From Dehalococcoidia bacterium (GTDB lineage: Bacteria; Chloroflexota; Dehalococcoidia; Plut-88900), in NCBI GenBank assembly GCA_965116945.1, contig OZ220734.1, positions 65,257 to 129,256 of the forward strand: a stretch of DNA of 64,000 nt, given 5' to 3'. This document shows, piece after piece, positions 3,774 to 63,641 of this stretch; positions within the stretch are counted from its first letter, which is position 1; each line of letters starts with the position of its first letter. The notes beneath the pieces were generated by a model. The model did no database searches. It had not been told where the DNA came from and was given only the letters and a program-made list of their open reading frames with translations. Both the position numbers and the translations under genes were made by a program.

Positions 3774-5756
3774 ATGCTAGTCGCCTCCAACATATCCAAG
3801 TCTTACCCTGGCAAGACACTCTTTGCCGGACTCACCTTCACCCTTGCCCCGGGAGATCGTATCGCCCTCATCGGCCCAAACGGCTCCGGCAAGACCACCC
3901 TTCTGGATATACTCGCCGGGCAAACCGAGCCCGAGACCGGCGCCATTTCACGCCGGCGTAGCGTCACCCTGGGCTACCTTAAGCAGGAACCCGAGACATT
4001 TTCAGGCAAACCTCTCTTACAGGAAGTCCTGGATGCTGACCCAGAGTTAAATAGTCTGCTGGAAGAGATTACTGTTGTGCGGGAAGACTTGGCCTCAGAG
4101 CCCGACGCTGCCCAGCAGTCAATTCTTATGGACCGGCTCAGTGATCTTGACGCCGCACTGGAAGCCGCAGGAGGAGAAGCCCGTGAGCATGAGGCCGAAG
4201 CCATTCTCTCGGGGCTCGGATTCAGGGAGAGTGACTTTGACAGACCGATGAACGAATTCAGTGGGGGATGGGTAATGCGGGCGGGACTCGCAAAGATTCT
4301 CTTCAGGAAGCCCGACCTCCTGCTTCTCGATGAACCCACAAACCACCTGGACCTGGAGGCCAACCTCTGGTTCGAAAGGTATCTGGCTTCTTATCCGGGC
4401 GGAGTCCTCGTAACTTCCCACGACCGTGCATTTCTGAACCAGACCGTGAACAAGGTCCTCGCCATTGAGCCGGACGAAATAGCCCTTCACAAGGGAAATT
4501 ACGATGATTACCTCGTGAATCGGGAGCGCACTATCGATGCAAAACTCGCCGCAGCCGCTCGACAGGAACGGGAGATTCGCCGACAAATGCGCTTCGTAGA
4601 CCGGTTCCGCTATAAGGCCCGTAAGGCCAGCCAGGTCCAGTCCAGACTAAAGCAGCTGGGAAAGATGGAAGTCATCGAGCTGCCCAGGGCGACGAAAAAG
4701 GTCAACTACTCTTTCCCCAAGCCCCCACGCAGCGGTTCGGAAGTCATAACCCTGCTCAACATCCGGAAGGCCTATGGAGACAACGTTGTCTACAAGAATT
4801 TGAACCTCACCCTTGCTCGTGGTGATCGAGTGGCTTTGATAGGTCCGAATGGCGCAGGAAAAACCACACTGCTGAAAATCCTGGCGGACGTCGTGCCCTT
4901 CGAGGGTGGTGAGAGAAAGACCGGCCACAACGTCATAACCACCTACTATGCACAGCACGTTCTGGAACTCCTCACCCCGACCCATACACTTCTCGAGGAG
5001 CTACGTGAGGCCGCTCCCTCGGAGCCCGACCAGAATCTCCGCAACACACTTGGCGGATTCCTGTTCGCCGGCGACGACGTAGATAAGCGCATTTCTGTGT
5101 TGTCAGGTGGTGAAAAGGCACGCGTGGCCCTTGCCAAGTTGCTCCTGCAGCCCAGTAATCTTCTCCTCATGGACGAGCCTACTAACCATCTAGACATCGC
5201 CTCCCGGGAGGTACTGGCCGACGCCCTTGGCGACTACCGGGGAACGATCTGTTTCATCACCCACGACCGAACACTGATTCGCCAGGTCGCCAACAAGATT
5301 ATCGAGGTGGACGGGGGTCGTATCGCCGTCTATCCGGGAGACTACGACAGCTACCTCTACCTTAAGCAGAATAAGCCGAACCAGGTCATGGCCACATCAA
5401 CACCTGTTTCTCAGAGTGAGGAGAACCCCCACGAAGTCCCGACCCTCTCCCGCAATGGCAAGTCCATCTCACCTGAAGAGCGTCAGCGCCGCACCCTCAA
5501 CACCGAGGCCCGCAAGCTCGCCAAACAGATAGAAACCATCAACGATTCCCTGACCGACCGCGAGGCTCGCATCGCCCAATTTGAAGAGATGTTCTCCAAC
5601 CCGGACCGCTTTGCCGATTCGGACCAGATCGCATCCACCGCGGAGGCATATGAAGCCCTCAAGGGTGAAACCCAGTCCCTCTGGGAAGAATGGGAAAGAC
5701 TCTCCCTGGAAGCAGAGGCCGTCGATGGCAAGCTGACGGCGCTCAACTCCAGCTAG
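3774..5756 (+). CDS. ABC-F family ATPase (two ABC domains, C-terminal coiled coil; EttA/Uup/YheS-like translation factor type)
   Basis: Two Walker A motifs ([18 protein letters not shown]). Two ABC signatures ([29 protein letters not shown]). No TM domain. AT-rich promoter-like region upstream (3629-3773). Confidence 0.85.
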
Positions 5757-9619: not shown

Positions 9620-10303
9620 TTGCAAAGACTGATAATCTTCGACGTTGACCAGACACTCCTTAGCACAAGGGGCGGCGATCGGAAGGCTCTGAATACTGCT
9701 TTTCGAGAGTTGTATGGCATAGATTATGCCTTCGAAGGTGTGGGATTCGGGGGTCGGATGGACCTTTCCATAATGGCTGAGGTATACCGAATAAATGAGG
9801 TGGCTGAAGGCGACAGGAGCTTGGATGAGTTCAAACCACGGTATTTTGAGCACCTTGCGCGGATTTTGCCGGAGTGGCAAGACGGAATAGTCTGTCCGGG
9901 CGTCAGGGAACTGCTAAAGGTCCTTGACTCTAATGAAGACGTGCAGTTGGGGCTTGCTACGGGGAATTTCCGGGAGGCCGCGTTTATCAAGTTGCAAAGA
10001 TATGGCCTCGACGGCTTCTTTAAAGAAGGGGGATTTGGGGGAGACCATCCGGAGCGCCCCGAGGTGGTCGCCGACGCCATAGCCAAGTGTCAGGCTCTGG
10101 CGGGCACTATCTACGAACGAAGCAACATATTCGTAATCGGCGACTCAATCTCCGACGTGAAGGCGGGGCAGGCCAACGGCATCAATTCCGTAGCTGTGGC
10201 AACGGGCCACTACGACACCCAAAAGCTGGCCTCCCTGAACCCGACATACATCTTCCCGGACCTCTCGGATACGGCGAAAGTTCTGGAAGCCCTGCTGAGC
10301 TAG
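9620..10303 (+). CDS. HAD-superfamily hydrolase (paralog 1 of tandem pair), probable TTG start
   Basis: (M)QRLIIFDVDQTLL DxD nucleophile motif. C-terminal GDSISDVKAG. TTG at 9620 in frame with gggag SD 8 nt upstream. Start inferred by alignment with paralog 2 (MQRLILFDVDLTLV). Confidence 0.75.
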   Translation: MQRLIIFDVDQTLLSTRGGDRKALNTAFRELYGIDYAFEGVGFGGRMDLSIMAEVYRINEVAEGDRSLDEFKPRYFEHLARILPEWQDGIVCPGVRELLKVLDSNEDVQLGLATGNFREAAFIKLQRYGLDGFFKEGGFGGDHPERPEVVADAIAKCQALAGTIYERSNIFVIGDSISDVKAGQANGINSVAVATGHYDTQKLASLNPTYIFPDLSDTAKVLEALLS

Positions 10304-10314
10304 ACCCTGCTGGT

Positions 10315-11010
10315 ATGCAGAGACTCATCCTATTCGACGTAGACCTTACTTTGGTCGACACAACGGAATGTAATCTTCTGGCCTTTAACAGCGCTTTTGA
10401 ACAGGTCCACGGCATCCCAGACGCCTTCGACCTCACTGTATTTGACGGTGGCCTTGACCTGCCCCTGATGACCGAGATGTACAGAAAATGGGGCATCACC
10501 CAGCCCGACTCAATGACATTCCCCGACCTGTCCGAATTCACGACTGTCTACTTCGATCACCTTGCCAAGGGATTGGAAAACTGGACGGAAGGCTACGAGT
10601 GCCCAGGCGCGCGGGAACTTCTTGAGGCTCTGGTCCGGGAACCTGGAGTCCAGCTGGGACTGGAGACTGGCAACTTCCGTGAAGCAGCATTCATCAAGCT
10701 CCGGAAGTTCGGGCTGGATGTCTTTTTTGAAGAAGGCGGCTTCGGAGGAGACTGGACGACGCGCATGGAAGTCGTCGCCGACGCCATAGCCAAGTGTCAG
10801 GCCCTGGTGGGCACTATCTACGAACGAAGCAACATATTCGTAATCGGTGATTCCATCTCTGACGTGAAGGCGGGGCAAGCCAACGGCATCTATTCCGTAG
10901 CTGTGGCGACGGGCCATTACGACACCCAAAAGCTGGGCGCCCTGAACCCGACCTACGTCTTCCCGGACCTTTCGGATACGGCGAAAGTTCTGGAAGCCCT
11001 GCTCGGCTGA
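10315..11010 (+). CDS. HAD-superfamily hydrolase (paralog 2 of tandem pair)
   Basis: MQRLILFDVDLTLVDT. The C-terminal ~80 aa are nearly identical to paralog 1. ATG at 10315 lies 12 nt after the paralog 1 stop. Confidence 0.8.
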   Translation: MQRLILFDVDLTLVDTTECNLLAFNSAFEQVHGIPDAFDLTVFDGGLDLPLMTEMYRKWGITQPDSMTFPDLSEFTTVYFDHLAKGLENWTEGYECPGARELLEALVREPGVQLGLETGNFREAAFIKLRKFGLDVFFEEGGFGGDWTTRMEVVADAIAKCQALVGTIYERSNIFVIGDSISDVKAGQANGIYSVAVATGHYDTQKLGALNPTYVFPDLSDTAKVLEALLG

Positions 11011-14594: not shown

Positions 14595-16196
14595 ATGGCT
14601 TCAGGCCAACTGATTCCCGACTTGATCGGCTACAACGGCAACGTCATTACCATAGACCCCTATAAACCTCGAGCCCAGGCTTTTGCCATACGGGAAGGCG
14701 CTTTTGTAGCCGTTGGCGACAACGAGGAAATAAGGGACCTCGCCGGGCCGCACACCCGAAGAATAGACTTCGCTGGCAGCACGGTGGTACCGGGCTTCAA
14801 TGACGCTCACATCCATGTCCTCAGCAGCGGTATCCGCCACGCTCTGATGGCCGACTGTGCCCTTCCTTCGATCGGCGAAATCCAGGAAGCCATTCGGTTC
14901 CGGGCTTCCGACACCCCTGCAGGGGAATGGGTCCAGGGTTTCAAATTCGACGACACCAAGACCGCCGAAAACCGCTTCCTCAACCGTGAGGACCTGGACC
15001 AGGCCTGCCCCGACCATCCCGTACTGGTTGCCCACCGCGCCGGGCACGTCTATTACACAAACAGCAAGGGTCTTGAAAGGCTGGGAATAGACAAGAATTC
15101 ACCTGATCCCACGGGAGGAAGCTACGGTAAGAACCCGGTTACGGGAGAACTTGACGGCGTCCTCTACGAGACCGCCGCAGATCCCATCCGCTTCGAACTT
15201 CTTTCAAAAGTCACTCCGGACGTCCGCAGAGAAGGGCTGAAGACCATCTGTAAAATGTTCGCCGCCGCCGGTCTCACCTCCGTCCACGACGCCCTGGTAA
15301 CCAGTGACGATGTTGCCGTTTACCAGGAAGCCTGGGAGCGAGGTGAGCTTCCTCTGCGCGTCTACATGCTGGTGCACTACCGGTACTTCGGAGGGTTCAA
15401 GGCCTCGGGGCTGAAGACAGGTTTCGGGGACGACCGCCTGCGCCTTGGCGGCATAAAGATGGTCAGCGACGGCGCAATAGCATCCCGCACGGCCTACCTC
15501 TCCCGACCCTACGAAGGCAGCGATACCGATTGCGGCATCCGAGCCATCCCCCCCGATGAGTTGGAGGAGATGGTCAGGGAGGTCCACGACGCCGGTTACC
15601 AGGTCGCCGTTCACGCAAACGGAGACGCAACCATAGACATGGTCCTTACCGCCTACGAAAAGGCCCAGCGGGCCAACCCCCGACAGGATACCCGCCACCG
15701 CCTGGAACACTGCACCCTCGTCAACCCCGACCTGCTTAACAGGATGAAGGCCCTTGGCGCCGTAGCGACACCCTTCTGCACCTACGTCTACTACCACGGT
15801 GAAAAGATGCAGTATTTCGGTGAGGAACGGGTGAAGTGGATGTTCGCCCAACGCTCATTCCTGGACTACGGGGTAGTTGCCACCGGGGCCACAGACTATC
15901 CCCCCGGCCCCTTCGAGCCCCTCCTAGGTATCCAGAGCTGTGTCACAAGAACGGACAGCAACGGCAACCTGTGGGGAGCGAACCAGCGCATATCCGTGGA
16001 AGAGGCCTTGAAAGTCTACACCATGCACAGCGCCTACGCCTCCTTCGAAGAGAATCTCAAGGGGTCTATCACCGCAGAGAAACTTGCAGACTTCACTGTC
16101 CTCGCCAAGGACCCGACCGCCGTCGATCCCTTCACCATCAAGGACATCCCCATCGCGATGACTGTAGTCGGCGGAGAACCAATTTACGAAGCCTAG
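14595..16196 (+). CDS. Amidohydrolase-3 family metal-dependent hydrolase (YtcJ-like), intact paralog
   Basis: GFNDAHIHV HxH motif, VHANGDA, and conserved C-terminus. 533 aa. Confidence 0.8.
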   Translation: MASGQLIPDLIGYNGNVITIDPYKPRAQAFAIREGAFVAVGDNEEIRDLAGPHTRRIDFAGSTVVPGFNDAHIHVLSSGIRHALMADCALPSIGEIQEAIRFRASDTPAGEWVQGFKFDDTKTAENRFLNREDLDQACPDHPVLVAHRAGHVYYTNSKGLERLGIDKNSPDPTGGSYGKNPVTGELDGVLYETAADPIRFELLSKVTPDVRREGLKTICKMFAAAGLTSVHDALVTSDDVAVYQEAWERGELPLRVYMLVHYRYFGGFKASGLKTGFGDDRLRLGGIKMVSDGAIASRTAYLSRPYEGSDTDCGIRAIPPDELEEMVREVHDAGYQVAVHANGDATIDMVLTAYEKAQRANPRQDTRHRLEHCTLVNPDLLNRMKALGAVATPFCTYVYYHGEKMQYFGEERVKWMFAQRSFLDYGVVATGATDYPPGPFEPLLGIQSCVTRTDSNGNLWGANQRISVEEALKVYTMHSAYASFEENLKGSITAEKLADFTVLAKDPTAVDPFTIKDIPIAMTVVGGEPIYEA

Positions 16197-16205
16197 GTGC
16201 TCGTC

Positions 16206-17807
16206 ATGGCATCTCCCTCCCTCACCCCCGACAAACTGATACTCAACGCCAACGTCATCACCGTTGACTCTCGGATTCCCCGCGCTCAGGCCATCGCCAT
16301 TAAGAACGGCAAGTTTGTCGCCGTGGGCCGCAACGAAGACGTGGAACATCTCGGCGGACCGCAAACACAGGTGCTAAACCTGGGGGGCAAAACAGTAGTA
16401 CCGGGATTCATCGACGCCCATATACACGTCATGAGTACGGGCTGCAAGGTCTCGTCCCGCATGGTGGACTGCGAACTCCCGACCATAGGTCTCGTCCAGG
16501 AAGAGCTTCGACTGAAGGCCAGGGAGACTCCCCCCGGCGACTGGGTAATGGGCTTCAAGTACGATGACACCAAGACCCCCGAGGCCCGGATGCCCTCCCG
16601 CTGGGAACTCGACGAGGTCAGCCGCGAACACCCCGTAATCGTCACGCACCGTGCAGGCCTCAAGAGCTCGGGCAACAGCATGGCGCTGGATGAGTTTCAG
16701 GTGACCAGGGACTCTCGCGGTCCCATCTCAGGCCCCTATGAAAAAGACCCGGAGTCGGGGGAGCCCAACGGAGTCATGTATGAAGCCGGAGAGGAACGTA
16801 TCCGTTTCTTCCTTCTCACACAGATCACACCCGAGGAGCGTCGCCAGGGGCTAAAGACCATCACCCGGGAATACGTTGCCGCGGGCCTTACCAGCGTCCA
16901 CGACGCCATGGTCACTCCTGAAGAGGTCAGCGTTTACCAGGACGCCTGGCAGCATGAAGATCTCCTTCTGCGGGTCTATATGCTGGTTCATGAGAACTAC
17001 TTTGACTCATTCAGGCGGGCGGGTATACGTACCGGCTATGGAGACGACAAGCTGAAATGGGGTGGGATCAAGCTGACGAATGACGGCGGCATAGCGACTC
17101 GCACCGCCTTCCTGAGCGAGCCCTATGTCGGGACCAACGACCACGGCCTGATGCTCTTCGAACAGGAAGAGCTGGATGACAAGATTCACCGCATTCATGA
17201 GGCCGGTTACCAGGCCTGCATCCACTCCAACGGGGATGCTGCCATCGACATGACTCTCAAGGCCTTTGAACGGGCCCAGGCCTCCCACCCGAGGCAGAAC
17301 GCTCGGCACCGTATTGAGCATTGCACTGTCGTTAACCCCGACATCCTTCGAAGAATCAAGGCTCTCGGCGTGGTCCCGACCCCCTTCGGCGCCTATGCCT
17401 ACCAGCACGGCGAGAAGATGCACTTCTACGGCGAGGAACGTGCCCGCTGGATGTTTGCCCACCGCTCTTTCCTGGATCACGGAATCACCTGCACCGGCGC
17501 CTCCGACTTTACGGCCAGCCCTTTCGAGCCGCTTCTCGGAGTCCAGTGTTGCGTGACCAGGACGGATATGGAGGGTAGAGTCTGAGGCCCGAACCAGAAG
17601 ACCACCATCGACGAGGCTCTCCGCATCTATACCCTCAACGGCGCCTACGCCTCCTTCGAAGAGAATCTCAAGGGCTCCATCACTCCCGGTAAGCTCGCCG
17701 ACCTGGTGGTCCTTTCCCAAGACCCGACCGCCGTAGACCCCTTCACCATCAAGGACATCCCCATAGAAATGACTATGGTCGGGGGAGAGGCAGTGTACGA
17801 AGGATAG
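16206..17807 (+). pseudogene. Amidohydrolase-3 family paralog interrupted by an in-frame TGA (17583-17585) at a position that is Trp (TGG) in the upstream paralog
   Basis: Alignment SNGNLWGANQRISVEEAL versus MEGRV*GPNQKTTIDEAL. The 74 codons downstream of the TGA remain in frame and ~80% identical to the paralog C-terminus, ending at TAG 17805-17807. Confidence 0.55.
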
Positions 17808-22057: not shown

Positions 22058-22127
22058 AGAAAGATCACCCTCACCCCAGCCCTCTCCTGTCAATGGAGCG
22101 GGCATTGCAATACAGAGGAGCAACATC

Positions 22128-23141
22128 GTGAAAGACAACAGATTCCTGACCGACTACGTCGGGATCCCGACCTTCTACAACGCCCCGACCATCGGGCTGG
22201 ACGACATTAAAGAGGGCATGGGAGTTGTAACCGGCGCACCCATCGACCAGGGAATCCTTTTCATGAGGAGTGGAGCGCGGTTCGGGCCTCGGAGCATCCG
22301 GGAGGCCTCCCTGATGTATCGCGGACTCCAGGACGTTGCCTCCGAAAACACCTCGGTCAACGTCGACACCCACATCGCCCGACGCCTCAAGTCCCAGTTG
22401 AACATAGGCGACCTCGGTGACTTACCCGTTCATCCTCAGGACATCATGAAGACCACCGAGTGGGTTATCGACGGCATTGCGGAGATAGTCAAGCGGGGCG
22501 GAGTGCCCATCCTCCTCGGCGGCGACCACTACCTGGCCTACCCGGGATTCGAGGGCTTTTCCAGGGGCCTGATGGAGCGAGGCGAGAAGCCCAGGCTCGG
22601 TTACGTTCACATCGACACCCACACAGACTTCCGGGACCGCTACGGCGAATTGGGCCGCTACAACCACGGCACCTGCGCCCGACGCATCAGCGAAAACTCC
22701 GTCGTCTCTTACAAGAATATGACGTGGGTCGGGCTGAACGGCACCATCATGGACGCCGACATCTACAAGATGTACAAGAAACAACAGCTGAAGATGTCCA
22801 CCGCCAACGACGTCCGGACTCAGGGCATGGAGCACGTCCTGCGCTCGGCCATCGAGGAAGCGGCGGACGGCACCGACGCCGTATACGTCAGCGTGGACAT
22901 CGATGTCGTCGACGCTTCCTACGCGCCCGGGACGGGGGCCCCGGTATTCGAGGGCATCACCGCGTCAGACCTCCTGTCCGCCATGTCGATCCTCAGCGAG
23001 TACGACTGCGTGAAGGCCATTGACCTCTGCGAGGTAGCCCCGCCCATCGACCCCAACGGCAATACGGCCTACCTGGCGGCCAGCGGACTCATCGGGTTCC
23101 TGGGTAATTACCTTTTCGACGTAGTGGACCTGGACGGATAG
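22128..23141 (+). CDS. Ureohydrolase (arginase/agmatinase/guanidino-acid hydrolase family), paralog 1
   Basis: Mn-binding motifs GGDHYLAYP, VHIDTHTDF and SVDIDVVDAS. Confidence 0.8.
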   Translation: MKDNRFLTDYVGIPTFYNAPTIGLDDIKEGMGVVTGAPIDQGILFMRSGARFGPRSIREASLMYRGLQDVASENTSVNVDTHIARRLKSQLNIGDLGDLPVHPQDIMKTTEWVIDGIAEIVKRGGVPILLGGDHYLAYPGFEGFSRGLMERGEKPRLGYVHIDTHTDFRDRYGELGRYNHGTCARRISENSVVSYKNMTWVGLNGTIMDADIYKMYKKQQLKMSTANDVRTQGMEHVLRSAIEEAADGTDAVYVSVDIDVVDASYAPGTGAPVFEGITASDLLSAMSILSEYDCVKAIDLCEVAPPIDPNGNTAYLAASGLIGFLGNYLFDVVDLDG

Positions 23142-23180
23142 AGCAAAGAGTGGGTAATTTGAACTAGAAGGGTTGATGTG

Positions 23181-24191
23181 ATGGACGCCGAATTTTTGAC
23201 CACATACGTCGGGATCCCGACATTCTTCAATGCTCCTCACATTGGCCTGGACGATGTGAAGGAGGGTATGGCCGTTGTGGCCGGCGCCCCGATAGACAAC
23301 GGCATCATTTTCCCGAGGGCCGGCGCGCGATTCGGCCCCAGGAGCATCCGGGAGTCGACCCTGATGTACCGCGGCCTCCAGGACGTCGCCTCCGAGAACA
23401 CCACTGTAAACGTAGATTCCCACGTAGCCCGACGCCTGAAGCCGACCCTCAACCTGGCTGACCTCGGTGACTTCCACGTCAACCCCCAGGACATCATGCA
23501 GACCACCGACTCGGTGATAGAGGGCATCCGGGATATCGTGCAGCGGGGCGGCATCCCCATACTTCTCGGCGGCGACCATTATCTCGCCTACCCCGGCTTT
23601 GAGGGGTTCGCCCGAGGCCTTAAGGAGCGCGGCGAAAGCCCGAAGCTCGGCTACGTCCACATAGACAGCCACACCGACTTCCGGGACGGCTACGGCAACC
23701 TGGGAAGCTACAACCACGGCACCTGTGTCCGCAGGATCAGCGAAAACTCGGTGATCTCCTACGACAACATGAGCTGGGTCGGGCTTAACGGCAGTGTGAT
23801 GGATGCCGACATCTACCGCGTTTACAAATCCCAGAAGCTGAAAATGTCGACTGCGAAAGACGTGCGCACCCAGGGCATGGAGCACGTTCTCCGCCAGGCC
23901 ATAGAGGCTGCCGCAGACGGGACGGACGCTGTATACGTCAGCGTAGACATCGACGTTGTATCAGCGGCCCACGCTCCCGGCACGGGTGTTCCCGTTTTTG
24001 AGGGAATCGAGGGTCGGGACCTGCTGGAGGCCATGTCGATTCTCAGCGAATACGACTGCATAAAGGCCCTCGACCTCTGCGAAGTCGCCCCGCCCCTCGA
24101 CCCCATTGGCAACACGGCATACCTGGCGGCCAGCGGCCTCCTGGGCTTCCTGGGCGGCTATCTCTTCGACGAAGTGAATCTTGACGACTAG
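23181..24191 (+). CDS. Ureohydrolase (arginase/agmatinase family), paralog 2 (~75% aa identity to paralog 1)
   Basis: Same GGDH / DxHxD / SxDxD motifs. Tandem with 22128..23141. Confidence 0.8.
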   Translation: MDAEFLTTYVGIPTFFNAPHIGLDDVKEGMAVVAGAPIDNGIIFPRAGARFGPRSIRESTLMYRGLQDVASENTTVNVDSHVARRLKPTLNLADLGDFHVNPQDIMQTTDSVIEGIRDIVQRGGIPILLGGDHYLAYPGFEGFARGLKERGESPKLGYVHIDSHTDFRDGYGNLGSYNHGTCVRRISENSVISYDNMSWVGLNGSVMDADIYRVYKSQKLKMSTAKDVRTQGMEHVLRQAIEAAADGTDAVYVSVDIDVVSAAHAPGTGVPVFEGIEGRDLLEAMSILSEYDCIKALDLCEVAPPLDPIGNTAYLAASGLLGFLGGYLFDEVNLDD

Positions 24192-34900: not shown

Positions 34901-35040
34901 CCAACGGTCACTCCCGTATCCCGAAACCCCGCGAGGGATCAGGGGTGGTGTCCAGTCCCCTCTCCCTTTACGGGAGAGGGCTAGGGTGAGGGTGATACGA
35001 TGACCTGCATTCCACGCTCCTTAGAGCCTTTCCGCGCGGC

Positions 35041-37434: not shown

Positions 37435-37471
37435 AAAAAGGGGCCTCCCGATATACGGGAGGCCCCTCTTT
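37435..37471 (-). terminator. Bidirectional Rho-independent terminator: aaaaa-ggggcctcccg-atata-cgggaggcccc-tcttt
   Basis: Perfect 11-bp GC-rich stem with A-run and T-run flanks. It follows the minus-strand small membrane gene (stop 37494) and separates it from dnaN. Confidence 0.55.
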
Positions 37472-41270: not shown

Positions 41271-41329
41271 GTTTCCTCCGAAAAAAAGACTACGGGGTCA
41301 CTTCGATGATATCACACCGGGCCTTACCG

Positions 41330-42070
41330 TCATTCCGCCCCCGAGCCGGCTGCAAGTGCGCCCAATGCGTGAATCCATCCCACGAGGTAGAGTAGGGAGC
41401 TCTCCCTCTCTCGTAGGGGCATCCCTCATGGGCGCCCTCCCCGGTGCGGGGCCACTCATGCTGAGCCCCGTCGAAGTACGAGCGGAGAGGGGTGTCTTGT
41501 CCCCATCCCCCCAGTACTGAACTAGAGGCAGACGCATGTGCGTTGCACATGCGTCTGCCTCTGTTCTTATCTCCCCCTCTCCCTTCATGGCCCTAAGGGT
41601 CGAAGATGTCGCAGATGCGCCTTTGGCGTGCGCCGGGCTGAAAGTCCGCCTTTGGCGGAGCGTGAGAGGGGGACCAAGGGGGTGAGGGTTCCCCTGGGGG
41701 GTGGGGGTTATTCCCCCTCCCCCTTTGCCCCAGTACCAAACTAGAGGGGAGCACCTGCGCCAAGGCGCAGGTGCTCCCCTCTGTTTTTTCCTCCCCCTCT
41801 CCCTTGATGGCCCTAAGGGTCGAAGATGCGCCTATGGCGTGAGAGGGGGATAAAGGGGGTGAGGGTTCCCTGGGGGTGGTGGGGCCCACCCCCCAAAACT
41901 GTGCCATTTGCCCCTTGACTCTACCTGAACACGCGTGCTAACTTTCTCCCACGTTCGAACACCAACCCTACTCACTTAAGGAGGAACCAATAACCCAGGG
42001 AAGCCCCCGAGACCCACCGGGTCCCGTGTCCCTTCCCTACCCAGGCGATGGATAGACGCTCTGGTTCGCT
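41330..42070. repeat. Modular non-coding repeat element, left copy, with internal partial duplication and perfect palindromes. Inverted partner at ~63020..63610.
   Basis: Two tandem units sharing cccagtac(c/t)(a/g)aactagagg-[palindrome]-cctctgtt...ctccccctctccctt(c/g)atggccctaagggtcgaagatg...gagagggggaNcaagggggtgagggttccc. Perfect palindromes at 41524..41562 and 41743..41782. Sub-modules (cgagccggctgcaagtgcgcc; gctgaaagtccgcc..tggcggagc; ttaaggaggaaccaa..cccagggaagccc) recur in reverse complement near 63.0-63.6 kb. Confidence 0.6.
41743..41789 (+). terminator. Terminator-like hairpin inside the repeat: 19-bp perfect stem, aa loop, followed by gtttttt
   Basis: agaggggagcacctgcgcc-aa-ggcgcaggtgctcccctct-gtttttt read directly. 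There is no upstream + strand gene, so it is probably a structural part of the repeat element or its RNA. Confidence 0.35.
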
Positions 42071-42711
42071 TTAGTTCCATGTGAAGCTCCTAACGGAGAA
42101 GCCGCTCTTTGTAGCGGAAGCGCGGTCGGACAGACCCGGCGCCGAGGTCCTCTCGGCACCCCGGCCGCTCAATAAAGCCGGGTGCCGGTGGTCCCCCGCA
42201 CTTCCGGGTCGCACCGGCAAACTGGATACACTACTACGCCTGCAAGAGGCTCTGCATCGGACGCTGGAAGAGCCTCCTTACCGCCCTAGTGCGGTGCAGC
42301 CAACCCCAGGAAGTTGGGCACGGACCTGCTGGCCCTTAGGGTTCCTGCCCAAGTCCAGCGTATTTAGGGCCACAGGCCGCATAGCGGCATAAGCGGGCCG
42401 GCGCCCCTGCCCCGGGGCGTCGAATAACCCGAAGCACAGGAACGGGGCAGCGTCCCGGAAGCGTCTTCCATCGCCGACCCAAAACCCAAAAGAACAATCG
42501 AAACCCCACCCCCACAATCGAAGATGGAACATCCGCCTTGGGCGGGTCCGCCTCAGGAGGACCGAATAACCCGGCCCCCGGTCATTTGACATTCCCCAAG
42601 TGCACAGATAGACTCGCCCCCATCCGGATGCATGCCCTTTTGGATCCACCGCTTGTGACCCTGCACCTGACCTTGACTACTCTACGGTAACTGCCTTTCC
42701 CGGAGATATCA

Positions 42712-43911
42712 TTGGTCTACCTTTCCACCGAAACCCCTGTCCAGCGTTGCCTCGAAGACGCACTGGATGGTAGGCCCGTATCCAGGGGAGATGCTTACCG
42801 TCTGATCCGGGCCCAGGGCCCTGAAATTCCCGCTCTCCTTGCCGGTGCGGCCAGGCTGACTGAAATGGCCAAGGGGCGTAGGGTAGCCTACTCACGCAAG
42901 GTCTTTATCCCTCTAACCAACCTCTGCCGAGACCGCTGCGGTTACTGCACTTTCGTCAAAGGCCCTAAGCATCCGGACGCCAAGACCATGACTCCCGACG
43001 AAGTCCTTGCCGTCGCCAAGGCCGGTCGACGCGCGGGATGCAAGGAAGCCCTGTTTAGCCTTGGTGAGAAACCCGAAGATGTACACCGCGTGGCTCGTAC
43101 CCATCTTCAGGAGTTTGGCTATCCCTCCATGACCGACTACCTGGTAGACATGTGCAAACTTGTCTTCGAGGAGACCGGTCTATTCCCACACTCCAACTCC
43201 GGTGTCCTTGAACCCGAGGAAGTAGCCCGCCTCCGGGAAGTAACTGTCAGCATGGGCCTCATGCTGGAGAACGCCAGCCCCAGACTCCTTGAAAGAGGAC
43301 AGGCCCACTTTGGCAGTATTGGCAAAGACCCTCGCATCCGCCTGGAAACCATGCGCTATGCCGGAGAGTTGAGGGTCCCTTTCACCACCGGCATGCTCAT
43401 TGGAATCGGCGAAACCATCGACGAACGCGTTGATACCCTCTTCGCCATAAAGGACCTCCAGGATGAATACGGTCACATCCAGGAAGTCATTATCCAGAAC
43501 TTTCGCGCCAAGCCCGACACCCGCATGAGGGCCTACGGAGAACCTTCGGCTGTGGACATGGCCGTCACCATCGCCGTAGCCCGGCTGGTCCTGGGACCCG
43601 ACATGAACATCCAGGCTCCCCCCAACCTCACCGCCGACGCCTACCAGTTCTACCTGGCTTCCGGCATCAACGACTGGGGTGGAATCTCACCTGTCACCAA
43701 GGACTTCATAAACCCGGAAAAAGCCTGGCCTATGATCACGGAGTTGAAGGAGCGCACCGGAGCTCTCGGTTACGAACTACGAGAGAGACTCGCCATCTAC
43801 CCCGAATACATCATGGAAAAACACGGATACCTGAACCCCATCATGGAGGCCTCCGTACTCGGCCTCGTAGACGGGGACGGCTACGTTAAGAATGAGGAGA
43901 CCCGATGGTAA
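42712..43911 (+). CDS. cofG: 7,8-didemethyl-8-hydroxy-5-deazariboflavin (Fo) synthase subunit CofG (radical SAM), TTG start
   Basis: CRDRCGYCTF CxxxCxxC radical-SAM cluster motif plus CofG-like context. ggaga SD lies 6 nt upstream of the TTG. Confidence 0.85.
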   Translation: MVYLSTETPVQRCLEDALDGRPVSRGDAYRLIRAQGPEIPALLAGAARLTEMAKGRRVAYSRKVFIPLTNLCRDRCGYCTFVKGPKHPDAKTMTPDEVLAVAKAGRRAGCKEALFSLGEKPEDVHRVARTHLQEFGYPSMTDYLVDMCKLVFEETGLFPHSNSGVLEPEEVARLREVTVSMGLMLENASPRLLERGQAHFGSIGKDPRIRLETMRYAGELRVPFTTGMLIGIGETIDERVDTLFAIKDLQDEYGHIQEVIIQNFRAKPDTRMRAYGEPSAVDMAVTIAVARLVLGPDMNIQAPPNLTADAYQFYLASGINDWGGISPVTKDFINPEKAWPMITELKERTGALGYELRERLAIYPEYIMEKHGYLNPIMEASVLGLVDGDGYVKNEETRW

Positions 43912-45612: not shown

Positions 45613-45790
45613 CTTTCATCTCAACAACCTGCCAGGAAAGGGTCGGGATGAGGGCTGGGTCCATGGTCTCTTGCGTCTGCATTGTCTGCAGGCCGAAGGG
45701 ATTTCAATGCATGCAGCCCCCATACGCTTGCCCTTTATGACAGTGATAGAATCATAGCCATCCTCCTCAGGTAAGGTCAGGACTACTGCA

Positions 45791-46996
45791 TTGCACGATC
45801 AGGCGCTAAGTGACCTGCGGGTTCTGGACTTCAGCCGGCGTATCCCTGGACACGTCTGTACAAAACTCCTGGCCGACTTTGGGGCTGACGTCATCCTTGT
45901 AGAACCCCCCGTCGGAGATCCGACCCGCTCCTCGAATCCCTTCATAGATGACCTGCCAGATCTCGAGAACAGTGGATACTTCCGCTACCTCAACAACAAC
46001 AAGCGCGGGATAACCCTGGATCCCGAGACAGACACCGGGGCAAGGCTCTTCTTGGAACTCGTAGAGTGGGCGGACCTCGTCGTAGAGACCTTCGCCCCTT
46101 CCACCCTCCCCTCCCTCGGCTTGGGATACGAAACAATGAAGGAGCGAAACCCTAAAATAGTACTCACCTCAGTAACAAACTTCGGGCAAAGCGGCCCCTA
46201 CAGCGAATACCTCGCCTCGGAGGCGATTTATTACGCCATGTCAGGTCTGATGTACGTCACGGGCCTCGACTCCCGGGAGCCTGTGAAACTGGGGGCGAAC
46301 GTTATCCAGTTCCACGCCGGCATAATGAGCGCCCTTCATTCTATGATCGCTCTACGGGGCACGGCATCAAGGGGTGTTGGAGAGCACGTCGACGAGTCTA
46401 TCCAGGAACTTCAAGCGGGCAGCATAGACCGAACCTCTGCAATGTTGCTGGCCTTTCAGTACACGGGATTCTTAACCCGGCGTGAGAACTTTGAAGGCGG
46501 AGGAGGGTCTGTCCACCAGTGTAAAGACGGCTACCTGAACATGTTCCCGGATGCCACCATGATCCCTAAAGGGTTGAACATGCTAGGAATGTCCGAGTTG
46601 ATGGAAGAGCCACTCTTCTCGACCATGGAAGCTCGATCCATGCCAGAAAGCCACGAGTATTTCGATGCCCTGCTTGATCCATGGCTTTTGGAGCGTCCTG
46701 TAACACAAGCCTTCGTCGCCGCCCAGGACGCACGCATTCTCTCAGGGCCGGTATACAACTCTGCCCTCCTCACCGCCGACCCCAACTTCAGCGCCCGGGC
46801 TTACTGGCCCACCGTTGAAAGATCACCCGGCGATATGGTGCGCATTCCGGGCAAGTCTTTCCAGATGTCCGGGGGCCCATGGACCATCTGCCGCCCCGCC
46901 CCCACCCTGGGCCAACATAACTCGGAAGTATACGGTGGCATCCTTGGCTTCTCTAGAGAAGAGCTTTCTATGTTGAAACAGGTTGGAGTCATCTAA
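45791..46996 (+). CDS. CoA-transferase family III (CaiB/BaiF-like), module gene A
   Basis: LSDLRVLDFSRRIPGHVCTKLLADFGADVILVEPPVGDPTR. The family-III N-terminal signature includes the catalytic Asp region. Confidence 0.85.
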   Translation: MHDQALSDLRVLDFSRRIPGHVCTKLLADFGADVILVEPPVGDPTRSSNPFIDDLPDLENSGYFRYLNNNKRGITLDPETDTGARLFLELVEWADLVVETFAPSTLPSLGLGYETMKERNPKIVLTSVTNFGQSGPYSEYLASEAIYYAMSGLMYVTGLDSREPVKLGANVIQFHAGIMSALHSMIALRGTASRGVGEHVDESIQELQAGSIDRTSAMLLAFQYTGFLTRRENFEGGGGSVHQCKDGYLNMFPDATMIPKGLNMLGMSELMEEPLFSTMEARSMPESHEYFDALLDPWLLERPVTQAFVAAQDARILSGPVYNSALLTADPNFSARAYWPTVERSPGDMVRIPGKSFQMSGGPWTICRPAPTLGQHNSEVYGGILGFSREELSMLKQVGVI

Positions 46997-62279: not shown

Positions 62280-62417
62280 ATTCAGCCTCCCGCCAAGTGT
62301 AGATTGAGGCCGATTATAGCAGACCGGTTGCTGTTAGCCCTCAAAGCACCTCTCGGGTGAGGATGCTGGAGCGCGCAGGGCATAAGGGAAGTCGATGGAT
62401 GGTATGGAGGGAGTGAA

Positions 62418-62494
<77 letters not shown>

Positions 62495-62865
62495 ACGGGT
62501 CGGTAGCTTAGCACGATGGATGTGGGCATTCAAGGCGGTGTACTCGTACGGTGGACTAGTGACGCACTGGAGTTTTGTTCAGTTGTGAGGTTTTGGGTTG
62601 GCGATGGAAGACGCCTGGAGAGCCGGTCGGCCTCTACTCTCATGCGGTGTTCCGGCTGTCGGGGGCCTTGGAGGTCCGCCGAGGGCGGATTGCAGCCGGC
62701 CGCGCCCTAGCGCTCGATGTGTGCTCCAGCTGTCCGGGCAGACAACCGGGCCTTGACCCCACTTCTGAATGCCCGCAGGCATGGTGGGGGCCAGTGATCG
62801 GGCTGTGGCCCCCTCAGACATCATGTGTTACGTGGGCCCCCCGAGGGTCAAGGCGGCCCAGCGAC

Positions 62866-63030
62866 CCCTTGCTTGATATATGGCGCAAGCTCGCCGGCGG
62901 GCCGACCTCCGGGATCCAGTCCCGGTCGGGGATAGCCGGTCCGCCACCCCTGCTTGATATAGCGTAAGCTCGCTGCTAACCGGCCTCCGAGACTACCGTC
63001 TCGGCGGGGAATGGCCGGTTCGCTGTGGCT
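62866..63030. repeat. Two tandem ~82-bp repeat units (cc(c/t)tgcttgatata(t)...) each containing a different perfect hairpin at the same relative position
   Basis: Unit A hairpin is ccggga-tccag-tcccgg. Unit B hairpin is ccgagac-tacc-gtctcgg. Both are followed by ggggaWWgccggtYcgc. This is compensatory covariation between units. Confidence 0.5.
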
Positions 63031-63610
63031 CTATCCAGGGCGTCTTTCCATCGCCTGACTACCAGGGAAGGGGGCACACGGGACCCGGTGGGATGAGGAG
63101 ATGGCGACGTTCGCTTGTGCCGCAGGCCTGCGCGAGGGCCGTTAGGATGGGCTAGGGCGTTGAGTCCTCTCGTTGGGTCTCGGGTGGGCTTCCCTGGGTT
63201 TTTGGTTCCTCCTTAAGGTTGGTGTCGGGTCTAGACTTGGGAGGAAGATAGCACATATGTTTGGGTGCGTCAAGGGTGTGGGTTGCACAGTTTCGGGGAG
63301 GAGAACCCCCCAACCCCCCAGGGAACCCTCACCCCCTTGATCCCCCTCTCACGCCATAGGCGCATCTTCGGCCCTTAGGGCCATTAAGGAAGAGGGAGAG
63401 AAAAGAATAGGGGCATGCGCATGTGCTGAAGCACATGCGCATGCCCCTAATTCAGTACTGGGGGGAGGGGGAGGAAAGAACAGAGGGATGGACCTGCGCC
63501 AACGTCTGCCTCTAGTTTGGTACTGGGGGAAGGGGATGGATTCCGGCTCCGCCACGGGCGGACTTTCAGCACGGCGCACTTGCAACCGGCTCGGCGGCCG
63601 GATTGACCGG
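63020..63610. repeat. Modular non-coding repeat element, right copy, in inverted orientation relative to 41330..42070
   Basis: The reverse complement contains cccagtaccaaactagagg, atggccctaagggccgaagatgcgcctatggcgtgagaggggga..gggggtgagggttccctgggg, cgagccggttgcaagtgcgcc, gctgaaagtccgcccgtggcggagc and gggcttccctgggttTttggttcctccttaa, all matching modules of the left copy. Also carries the perfect 38-bp palindrome ggggcatgcgcatgtgc-tgaa-gcacatgcgcatgcccc (63411..63448). Confidence 0.6.
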
Positions 63611-63641
63611 GGGAGTGGAGATAGCGGTAAGGATTAACCTT

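Follow-up and report, generated by a model that had tools for sequence, protein, structure and literature searches.

A mosaic intergenic repeat of soil Dehalococcoidia whose hairpin stem changes in sequence and stays paired

Results

The window analysed here is the whole 64-kb stretch of contig OZ220734.1 (positions 65,257 to 129,256; assembly GCA_965116945.1) from a Dehalococcoidia bacterium, and the feature under study is a set of perfect palindromes that sit within a repeated intergenic module. The module is present twice in the window, as inverted copies that are roughly 70-90% similar (left region 41280-42720, + strand; right region 63660-62400, - strand). A divergent cupin gene and a radical-SAM operon flank the left module. 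The right module follows the stop codon of an aminoacyl-tRNA-synthetase gene and precedes tRNA-Pro(GGG) and a CoA-transferase gene. Each contains, in the same order, repeat units, a G-rich segment, a sigma-70-type promoter with an extended -10 element, a leader with CTTAAGGAGGAACC, and a long-range helix (GGCGATGGA(A/T)AGACGC ... GCGTCTTCCATCGCC) that encloses ~430-460 nt. An independent gene call, made on another assembly of the same DNA, placed no credible gene in the 1.4-kb left intergenic region.

An exhaustive scan of the window for perfect inverted repeats recovered three palindromes in one slot of the repeat units, as the initial annotation had described, the third being slightly longer than first given (63408-63449 rather than 63411-63448). 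Just two further perfect palindromes with a stem of at least 12 bp exist in the 64 kb (411-445 and 37439-37467), and these look like ordinary terminators. At a stem length of at least 10 bp, 18 inverted repeats were observed against 0-4 per run in 20 first-order Markov simulations, both counts including nested stem/loop variants of one palindrome. All three palindromes share their flanks, ...A(C/T)TAG(A/G)GG on the left and CC(T/C)CT(G/A)TT on the right. A terminator scan flagged each of them (left locus, + strand; right locus, - strand), and each is followed by a T-rich tail; the T-run previously reported 3′ of hairpin 2 is among these. Coordinates are given in Table 1.

The right module also holds a degenerate hairpin (~63480-63508), which reads CAGACGTT-GGCGC-AGGTCCATC. 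It had been put down to recombination between hairpins 1 and 2. The hybrid is real, but its sequence better fits a fusion, at a common GGCGC, of a left arm of CAGACGTTGGCGC type with a right arm of GATGCACCTGCGCC type. Both types are present elsewhere in the repeat family. A deletion at microhomology between tandem units is expected to leave just such a hybrid.

Table 1. Features of the two intergenic modules in the 64-kb window. Perfect cores are from the inverted-repeat scan; bit scores are from the covariance model of the hairpin.
Feature	Position	Strand	Description
Module (a)	41329-41381	+	GTCATTCC...GAATCCATCCC; second hairpin slot, variable stem, split by an inserted GCTGCAAGTGCGCC module
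Repeat unit A	41509-41717	+	Hairpin module (b) and long form of module (c)
Hairpin 1	41519-41566	+	GAAC(T)AGAGG + CAGACGCATGTGC / gtt / GCACATGCGTCTG + CCTCTGTTC; T-rich tail to ~41575; -39.3 kcal/mol; 80.3 bits
Hairpin 1, perfect core	41524-41562	+	Stem 18, loop gtt
Repeat unit B	41717-41890	+	Hairpin module (b) and 175-nt form of module (c); fold z = -7.2
Hairpin 2	41738-41786	+	AAAC(T)AGAGG + GGAGCACCTGCGCC / aa / GGCGCAGGTGCTCC + CCTCTGTTT, then T-run; -43.9 kcal/mol; 71.5 bits
Hairpin 2, perfect core	41743-41782	+	Stem 19, loop aa
Module (c) of unit B	41790-41870	+	CCCCCTCTCCC..GGCCCTAAGGGTCGAAGATGCGCCTATGGCGTGAGAGGGGGATAAAGGGGGTGAGGGTTCCC; invariant between copies, conserved G-U pairs
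Promoter cassette, left copy	41915-41944	+	-35 TTGACT, 18-nt spacer, extended -10 TGC-TAACTT
Leader and structured-RNA cassette, left copy	41950-42555	+	Type II interior, C/A-rich tail; Shine-Dalgarno-like CTTAAGGAGGAACC at 41975-41988; closing helix 5′ half 42042-42059, 3′ half 42461-42475
Leader and structured-RNA cassette, right copy	62520-63240	-	Type III interior, then tRNA-Pro 62494-62418; closing helix 5′ half ~63056-63040, 3′ half ~62614-62600
Promoter cassette, right copy	63245-63273	-	TTGACG-17-TATCTT, with TG motif
Module (c), right copy	63321-63400	-	
Hairpin 3	63405-63453	-	GAA(T)TAGGGG + CATGCGCATGTGC / ttca / GCACATGCGCATG + CCCCTATTC, then T-rich tail; -40.2 kcal/mol; 76.4 bits
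Hairpin 3, perfect core	63408-63449	-	Stem 20, minus-strand loop tc
Degenerate hybrid hairpin unit	63471-63528	-	Truncated module (c); 26.8 bits

A dispersed mosaic repeat found in one clade

The 20-nt core of the repeat, GGCCCTAAGGGYCGAAGATG, was found at 46 loci in a collection of species-representative genomes (loci are referred to below by L numbers). All were in nine long-read metagenome-assembled genomes (MAGs) of soil Dehalococcoidia, and about 25 of the 46 were in a single 3.26-Mb chromosome (OY760104.1). The core was absent from the viral contigs searched, and two search patterns gave no match in JGI metagenome contigs. The covariance-model search proposed in the initial annotation, run with Rfam 15 on the window and 24 loci, returned no family at the gathering score or at a permissive E-value; the only returns were tRNAs and chance matches to miRNA precursors far below threshold. 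Within the collections searched, this mosaic intergenic repeat of soil Dehalococcoidia is previously undescribed and confined to the clade.

Aligned copies are mosaics of modules (a) to (f) in varying combination, much like bacterial interspersed mosaic elements (BIMEs). Module (a) has the form CATTCC-var-CCCCGAGA-var′-GGAATCCATCCCC, or GTCATTCC-variable hairpin-GGAATCCATCCCC. It lies upstream of the hairpin units at many loci, where its stem varies with compensation (CCGGC/GCCGG, CCCGTG/CACGGG, CCCGA/TCGGG). Module (b), CCCCAGTACTGAACTAGAGG-variable palindrome-CCTCTGTTCTTATCT, holds the hairpin. Module (c), CCCCCTCTCCCTTGAAGGCCCTAAGGG...GAGAGGGGGAT.AAGGGGGTGAGGGTTCCCC, occurs in nested length classes of 153, 175, 197, 218 and 240 nt, which arose as small hairpin motifs of 9-30 nt were inserted in nested fashion or duplicated in tandem. 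Modules (d), (e) and (f) are a G-rich spacer, a promoter and a leader. Two solitary minimal relatives of module (c), CCCCTCTCCCTTTACGGGAGAGGG-CTA-GGGTGAGGGT, lie in mutually inverted orientation at 22064-22107 and 34953-34996 of the window, so that repeat modules also exist alone.

Every catalogued copy of the hairpin is intergenic. Neighbouring units are direct tandem copies (window 41509-41890; L018, L042 and L045), and some copies are decaying (the window hybrid, L014, L020, L032 and L039). The ends of the unit, GGAATCCATCCCCC and the reverse complement of GGGGGTGAGGGTTCC, are loosely similar; no target-site duplication is recognisable and the boundaries are blurred by mosaicism. The family alignment agrees with the earlier suggestion of a repeat family resembling miniature inverted-repeat transposable elements (MITEs), in that it has a dispersed, mosaic character like that of MITEs and repetitive extragenic palindromic (REP) sequences.

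The stem interior is conserved in pairing and not in sequence

Fifty seven non-redundant, oriented hairpin modules were catalogued. Forty two are perfect in a variable core of 12-14 bp, and the set contains 43 different left arms. A covariance model of the hairpin found about 65 copies overall, only a handful of them extra and none further in the window. Covariation was measured on an alignment of 53 hairpins, in which 97.7% of stem cells are paired and both-sided changes occur at 12 of 19 pairs (228 cells). The covariation score is 0.570, compared with 0.182 in shuffled alignments (0/500) and at most 0.098 when the partners are slid. Folding of whole units with RNAalifold gives a full stem of GAAC(T)AGAGG / CCTCTGTTC, ~23 bp long, with one bulged T that is kept in 48 of the 53 copies. 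The pair at the base of the stem covaries from C-G to U-A. All helices of the unit besides the hairpin are invariant and are made of C-tracts and G-tracts. In the 13-bp interior of the stem, pairing alone is conserved and not sequence, and the flanks and the remainder of the unit are nearly invariant. The description of the palindromes as distinct yet self-complementary is hereby borne out, and extended from three copies to 53.

Two simple explanations were rejected. An operator for a single DNA-binding protein does not fit, because the sequence of the palindrome differs in nearly every copy. A tiny open reading frame (ORF; MALRVEDAPMA), also proposed in the initial annotation, fails because its start codon is not conserved and there is no ribosome-binding site: ATG is found in ~10 of 52 copies, the others having mostly GAA, AAA or ATA, and no Shine-Dalgarno (SD) sequence precedes it. 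Nor is a frame kept, as copies of this region differ by indels of 9-30 nt and have non-triplet lengths.

The whole unit (modules (b) and (c), ~150-240 nt) could instead be a structured non-coding or cis-regulatory RNA of which the hairpin is one helix. Its three-way junction fold has a z of -7.2 on the + strand and -5.0 on the - strand, and the conserved G-U pairs of module (c) are specific to the + strand. However, covariation is found in the hairpin only, no promoter was found upstream of the unit, and a terminator-like hairpin on the 5′ side would truncate such an RNA. The nested insertions and duplications in module (c) and the lack of an Rfam match also speak against it, and we regard this explanation as improbable. 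Of the earlier proposal of a structured RNA family, the covarying hairpin survives; the invariant remainder of the unit, without a known family, does not support it.

Loop inversions and mismatches point to a process at the DNA level

Mismatches are few among the 57 catalogued stems, and include 12 GT/TG and 11 AC/CA. Were the stem selected as RNA on one strand, G-U should be much better tolerated than A-C, and the near-equal counts speak against simple selection at the RNA level. The loop exists in both orientations. Among pairs of hairpins whose arms differ at no more than one position, 23 have an identical loop and 22 have its exact reverse complement, and the flips span at least five arm families, with the loop pairs AGAC/GTCT, AGA/TCT, ACA/TGT, CAAG/CTTG and AGAA/TTCT. 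Near-flips (GAC/GTC, GTT/AAC) occur in the catalogue between more divergent arms. L010 and L025 are orthologous loci with 90.8% identity over 1.6 kb; their hairpins and the flanks of these match exactly save for ACA in one and TGT in the other. Moreover, in 5 of the 53 copies, with differing arms, a single A has been inserted on the right side, giving CCTCTAGTT; the bulged T is thereby paired and the palindrome extended.

Taken together, the loop flips, the missing wobble bias and the inserted A point to a symmetrising process at the DNA level, rather than, or besides, selection on the RNA. Homogenisation of the arms with inversion of the spacer is the signature of replication template switching between the arms of an inverted repeat (PMC8604942), and the same mechanism has been put forward as the origin of perfect RNA stems and as the means by which they persist, by compensatory changes of several bases in one step (PMC8794818). 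Template switching during replication, or arm-to-arm conversion, would copy a change in one arm onto the other and would now and then invert the loop, so that copies could diverge from each other while each stays perfect. Conversion between copies is also suggested, because arms are combined as mosaics (the same outer triplets with different inner heptamers) and because of the hybrid in the window; a loop-centred tract would swap both inner arms at once.

The initial annotation took perfect symmetry with a different sequence in each copy as the signature of selection on structure. Pairing is indeed preserved by massive covariation, but the near equality of flipped and unflipped loops and of G-T and A-C mismatches fits a DNA-level process that needs no selection.

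A putative terminator or insulator ahead of a promoter

We lean, by a little, towards reading the palindromes as the sequence-free interior of the ~23-bp stem of module (b), GAAC(T)AGAGG-arm / arm′-CCTCTGTTC, with arms kept paired by template switching or conversion and a predicted role as a terminator or insulator before a promoter cassette. Transcribed in the orientation of the unit, the hairpin with its U-rich 3′ flank would act as an intrinsic terminator or insulator. In most cases it would shield the promoter cassette 160-550 nt downstream, and at some loci it would end the upstream gene. RNase III recognises a perfect duplex of about two helical turns, and the hairpin, being such a duplex, may also be a processing site for this enzyme.

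Several observations are consistent with this reading. The stems are 19-23 bp long with a mean folding energy of -38.9 kcal/mol, and T makes up 6.2 of 10 nt in the 3′ flank when the unit strand is read, compared with 4.3 on the other strand. A native terminator in the window (37436-37470) has a comparably modest U-tract. A hairpin unit lies 160-550 nt upstream of 26 of the 35 promoter cassettes found in the loci. Gene context was assessed from ORF calls filtered by codon-position GC, as a guard against spurious ORFs in GC-rich repeats. With these crude calls, the downstream gene is co-oriented with the unit in 31 cases and not in 14 (p = 0.016). The right-hand units of the window follow the synthetase stop codon. 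At the orthologous L014 the sole unit comes later, between tRNA-Pro and the promoter of the CoA-transferase gene.

The intergenic region between synthetase and CoA-transferase is 1.36 kb in the window (62280-63640) and 0.43 kb in OY760104.1 (L014:4129-4559). The tRNA-Pro is common to both, with the hairpin unit upstream of it in the window and downstream in L014, which has no RNA cassette.

Other observations weigh against a terminator or insulator. The upstream gene is co-oriented in 31 cases and not in 20, which by the same crude ORF calls is not significant (p = 0.16). Of the 39 hairpins with both flanks called, 28 adjoin the 3′ end of some gene and the other 11 (~28%) are in divergent regions, a share that, given crude gene calls, is about that of random intergenic placement; the left locus of the window, with no gene 3′ end nearby, is one of them. 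A stem of 23 bp and -39 kcal/mol is much longer than termination needs, and the GTTC at the start of the T-tail pairs with GAAC, which places part of the tail itself in the stem. The loop orientations were read from long-read MAG assemblies only. Finally, template switching is able to keep palindromes perfect without any function, so that covariation is no proof of selection.

This last point leads to a functionless, self-maintaining palindrome, carried along by a repeat whose spread is due to ectopic recombination or gene conversion, its perfection purely a mutational by-product of template switching. The absent wobble bias, the near-random placement relative to divergent regions and the tail of decaying copies are all in keeping with this, as is the loop orientation of about 50:50, which implies a loop free of strand-specific selection. 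Against it, about 60 copies in 9 genomes retain the slot, the stem length (13±1 bp plus the conserved base), a T-rich 3′ flank and a tight link to the promoter cassette. Furthermore, the repeat region of L010 and L025 is 83-95% conserved, compared with 78-97% for the flanking genes. We consider a palindrome without function unlikely.

The promoter and a structured-RNA cassette

The promoter cassette, AAAAGTGACACGAACCCC-TTGACC-N14-GTGC-TAnnnT, occurs in 35 copies in the loci (e.g. L009:4515, L025:6808, L037:4521-). It has an extended -10 element and an upstream inverted repeat, GGTGTC...GACAC, and is reused before non-homologous genes and several different leaders. Behind the family promoter there is usually an RNA cassette of ~650 nt, with 22 full copies in the loci. 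Its leader of ~150 nt has a perfect SD-like AAGGAGG (AAGGAGGAACC) and an AGGGAAG/CTTCCCT helix with variable inserts. A closing helix of 15-17 bp (CAGGCGATGGAA.../...TTCCATCGCC) then encloses an interior of 320-470 nt, of which there are at least three unrelated sequence types, and a C/A-rich, G-poor tail follows. The interiors fold into multi-branched structures, with 11 compensatory pairs among five type III sequences and 6 among six type I sequences. No match to the cassette was found in Rfam.

Between L010 and L025 the RNA region is 95-98% identical, compared with 78-97% in the coding flanks. At one syntenic locus the interior is of type II in one genome and of type III in two (L033:6605-7025 versus L013:6814-7216 and L036:2017-2401), and alignment is kept in the leader, the closing helix, the tail and the genes on either side. 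The difference is thus a domain swap inside a conserved helix. At L003 (- strand, ~4450-4620), L008, L019 and L038, another leader comes after this promoter, and then at least three tandem repeats of ~59 nt (GCGGATGCCTGCGGCAATGCGCCGCGGAAGAAAACCCGCACTGCTGCCCTTGGCGCAGAA).

The RNA cassette is the most novel lead of this analysis. Tentatively, and with more doubt than conviction, the hairpin units may be the upstream insulators of a new, non-coding and recombinationally mobile promoter-RNA cassette, composed of a near-identical promoter, a leader, a closing helix with interchangeable domains and a C/A-rich tail, in more than 20 copies per genome. One rule would then govern the evolution of small hairpins and large RNA domains alike, that of a conserved helix base with a replaceable interior.

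Other observations in the window

Runs of G (GGGGG..GGGGG..GGG..GGGG..GGGG) lie on the promoter-sense strand directly upstream of the promoter (41664-41717, 41841-41890 and 63297-63350) and could form a G-quadruplex. C-tracts complementary to these promoter-side runs flank the hairpin. Long direct repeats of 71-82% identity at 9941-10947, 15585-17791 and 22128-24191 (spacings 707, 1611 and 1050 nt) look like tandem paralogous genes.

The window is 99.75% identical to a second assembly of this DNA (L047; ENA ERZ25072196 ctg158561, '3x'), with zero differences in the repeat region. All 19 differences fall within ~800 nt (45659-46472) around the start of the CoA-transferase gene, and are either strain variation or low-coverage error.

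Discussion

The feature combines a REP/BIME-like mosaic repeat, a terminator-type hairpin and maintenance by template switching. Like REPs, BIMEs and REPINs (inverted REP dimers mobilised by REP-associated tyrosine transposases, RAYTs), it consists of GC-rich extragenic hairpins, in tens of copies per genome, that form mosaics with other short motifs (PMC2817692, PMC3116915, PMC3733652). Proposed roles of REPs include termination and control of mRNA 3′ ends (PMC2817692, PMC3116915, PMC3733652). However, the definition of REPs and REPINs includes a GTAG/CGTC tag (PMC3733652), which the present family lacks on either strand, its flanks being ..GAACTAGAGG and CCTCTGTTC. Whereas REP stems are family-specific, the stem here is hypervariable, with 43 distinct arms among the 57 hairpins. 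The units are in direct tandem and not in inverted pairs or alternating, as in REPINs and BIMEs. Nor is the family depleted from divergent intergenic regions. Unlike REPs it is linked to a promoter cassette, and no RAYT was found in the sampled DNA, by a weak tblastn search of 432 kb.

These comparisons bear on the possibility, raised in the initial annotation, that the palindrome is a DNA-level site of a mobile element. An extruded cruciform or single-stranded hairpin would be mobilised by a structure-specific enzyme (a RAYT, a Y1 transposase of the IS200/IS605 type or a tyrosine recombinase of the integron type) that recognises the shape of the conserved base, CTAGAGG/CCTCTG, with its bulged T. 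In favour of this, the family is scattered, orthologous loci differ in whether they carry a unit, and both tandem units and deletion hybrids exist. The bulged T is retained in nearly all copies, and the inverted loops reveal activity of the palindrome at the DNA level. The resemblance to integron attC sites lies in three traits: the base of the stem is conserved, the palindromic interior varies and one base is extrahelical. The core sites of attC are R′′ (RYYYAAC) and R′ (GTTRRRY). Here, in contrast, the stem is followed by GTTCTTA (YYY and not RRR), RYYYAAC is absent on the left, the arms are perfect where those of attC are imperfect, and the units stand singly or side by side in intergenic DNA, with no intervening ORF cassettes and no integrase seen. 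Moreover, Y1 enzymes read specific stem bases, whereas this stem is unconserved in sequence, and there are no clear terminal inverted repeats. A tblastn search of the window and loci (432 kb) with an IS200 TnpA query, a weak test, gave nothing below E = 0.3. Where they could be tested, the defining features of such systems are missing from this family, and we think it quite unlikely that the palindrome is a site of this kind.

The preferred reading, a terminator or insulator, accords with the likeness to intrinsic terminators, in which a GC-rich stem-loop precedes a U-rich tract, the stem is free to vary while it pairs and terminator scans flag the site. It differs from them in that the stem, at 23 bp and -39 kcal/mol, is far longer, the flanks are conserved and repeated across the genome, and many copies are not downstream of a co-oriented gene. 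In its arm homogenisation, spacer inversion and multi-base compensated changes, the slot resembles quasipalindromes that undergo template switching (PMC8794818, PMC8604942, PMC5453318). Published cases are single loci or rRNA and miRNA stems, whereas here there are about 60 paralogous or orthologous copies of one slot in bacterial genomes. Mobile promoters (PMC3575422) offer a further parallel, with similar upstream regions of >300 nt, including -35 and -10 elements, before non-homologous genes. In the window the shared upstream region precedes the radical-SAM operon on the left and tRNA-Pro and CoA-transferase on the right. The promoter described here differs in being packaged with an upstream hairpin/terminator module and, usually, with a structured RNA of ~650 nt.

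With about 60 natural replicates of one hairpin slot, its flanks frozen and its stem free, the family is an unusually clean bacterial test bed for the question of whether paired stems change by stepwise compensatory mutation under selection or by one-step template switching. The loop flips and the missing wobble bias favour template switching in this case. This carries a caution for covariation-based discovery of RNAs, since a mechanism at the DNA level can produce, or at least sustain, very strong covariation. For this uncultured and abundant soil lineage, the analysis exposes an undescribed system of repeat, promoter and RNA, and the stakes would be higher should the RNA cassette prove to be a new class of RNA.

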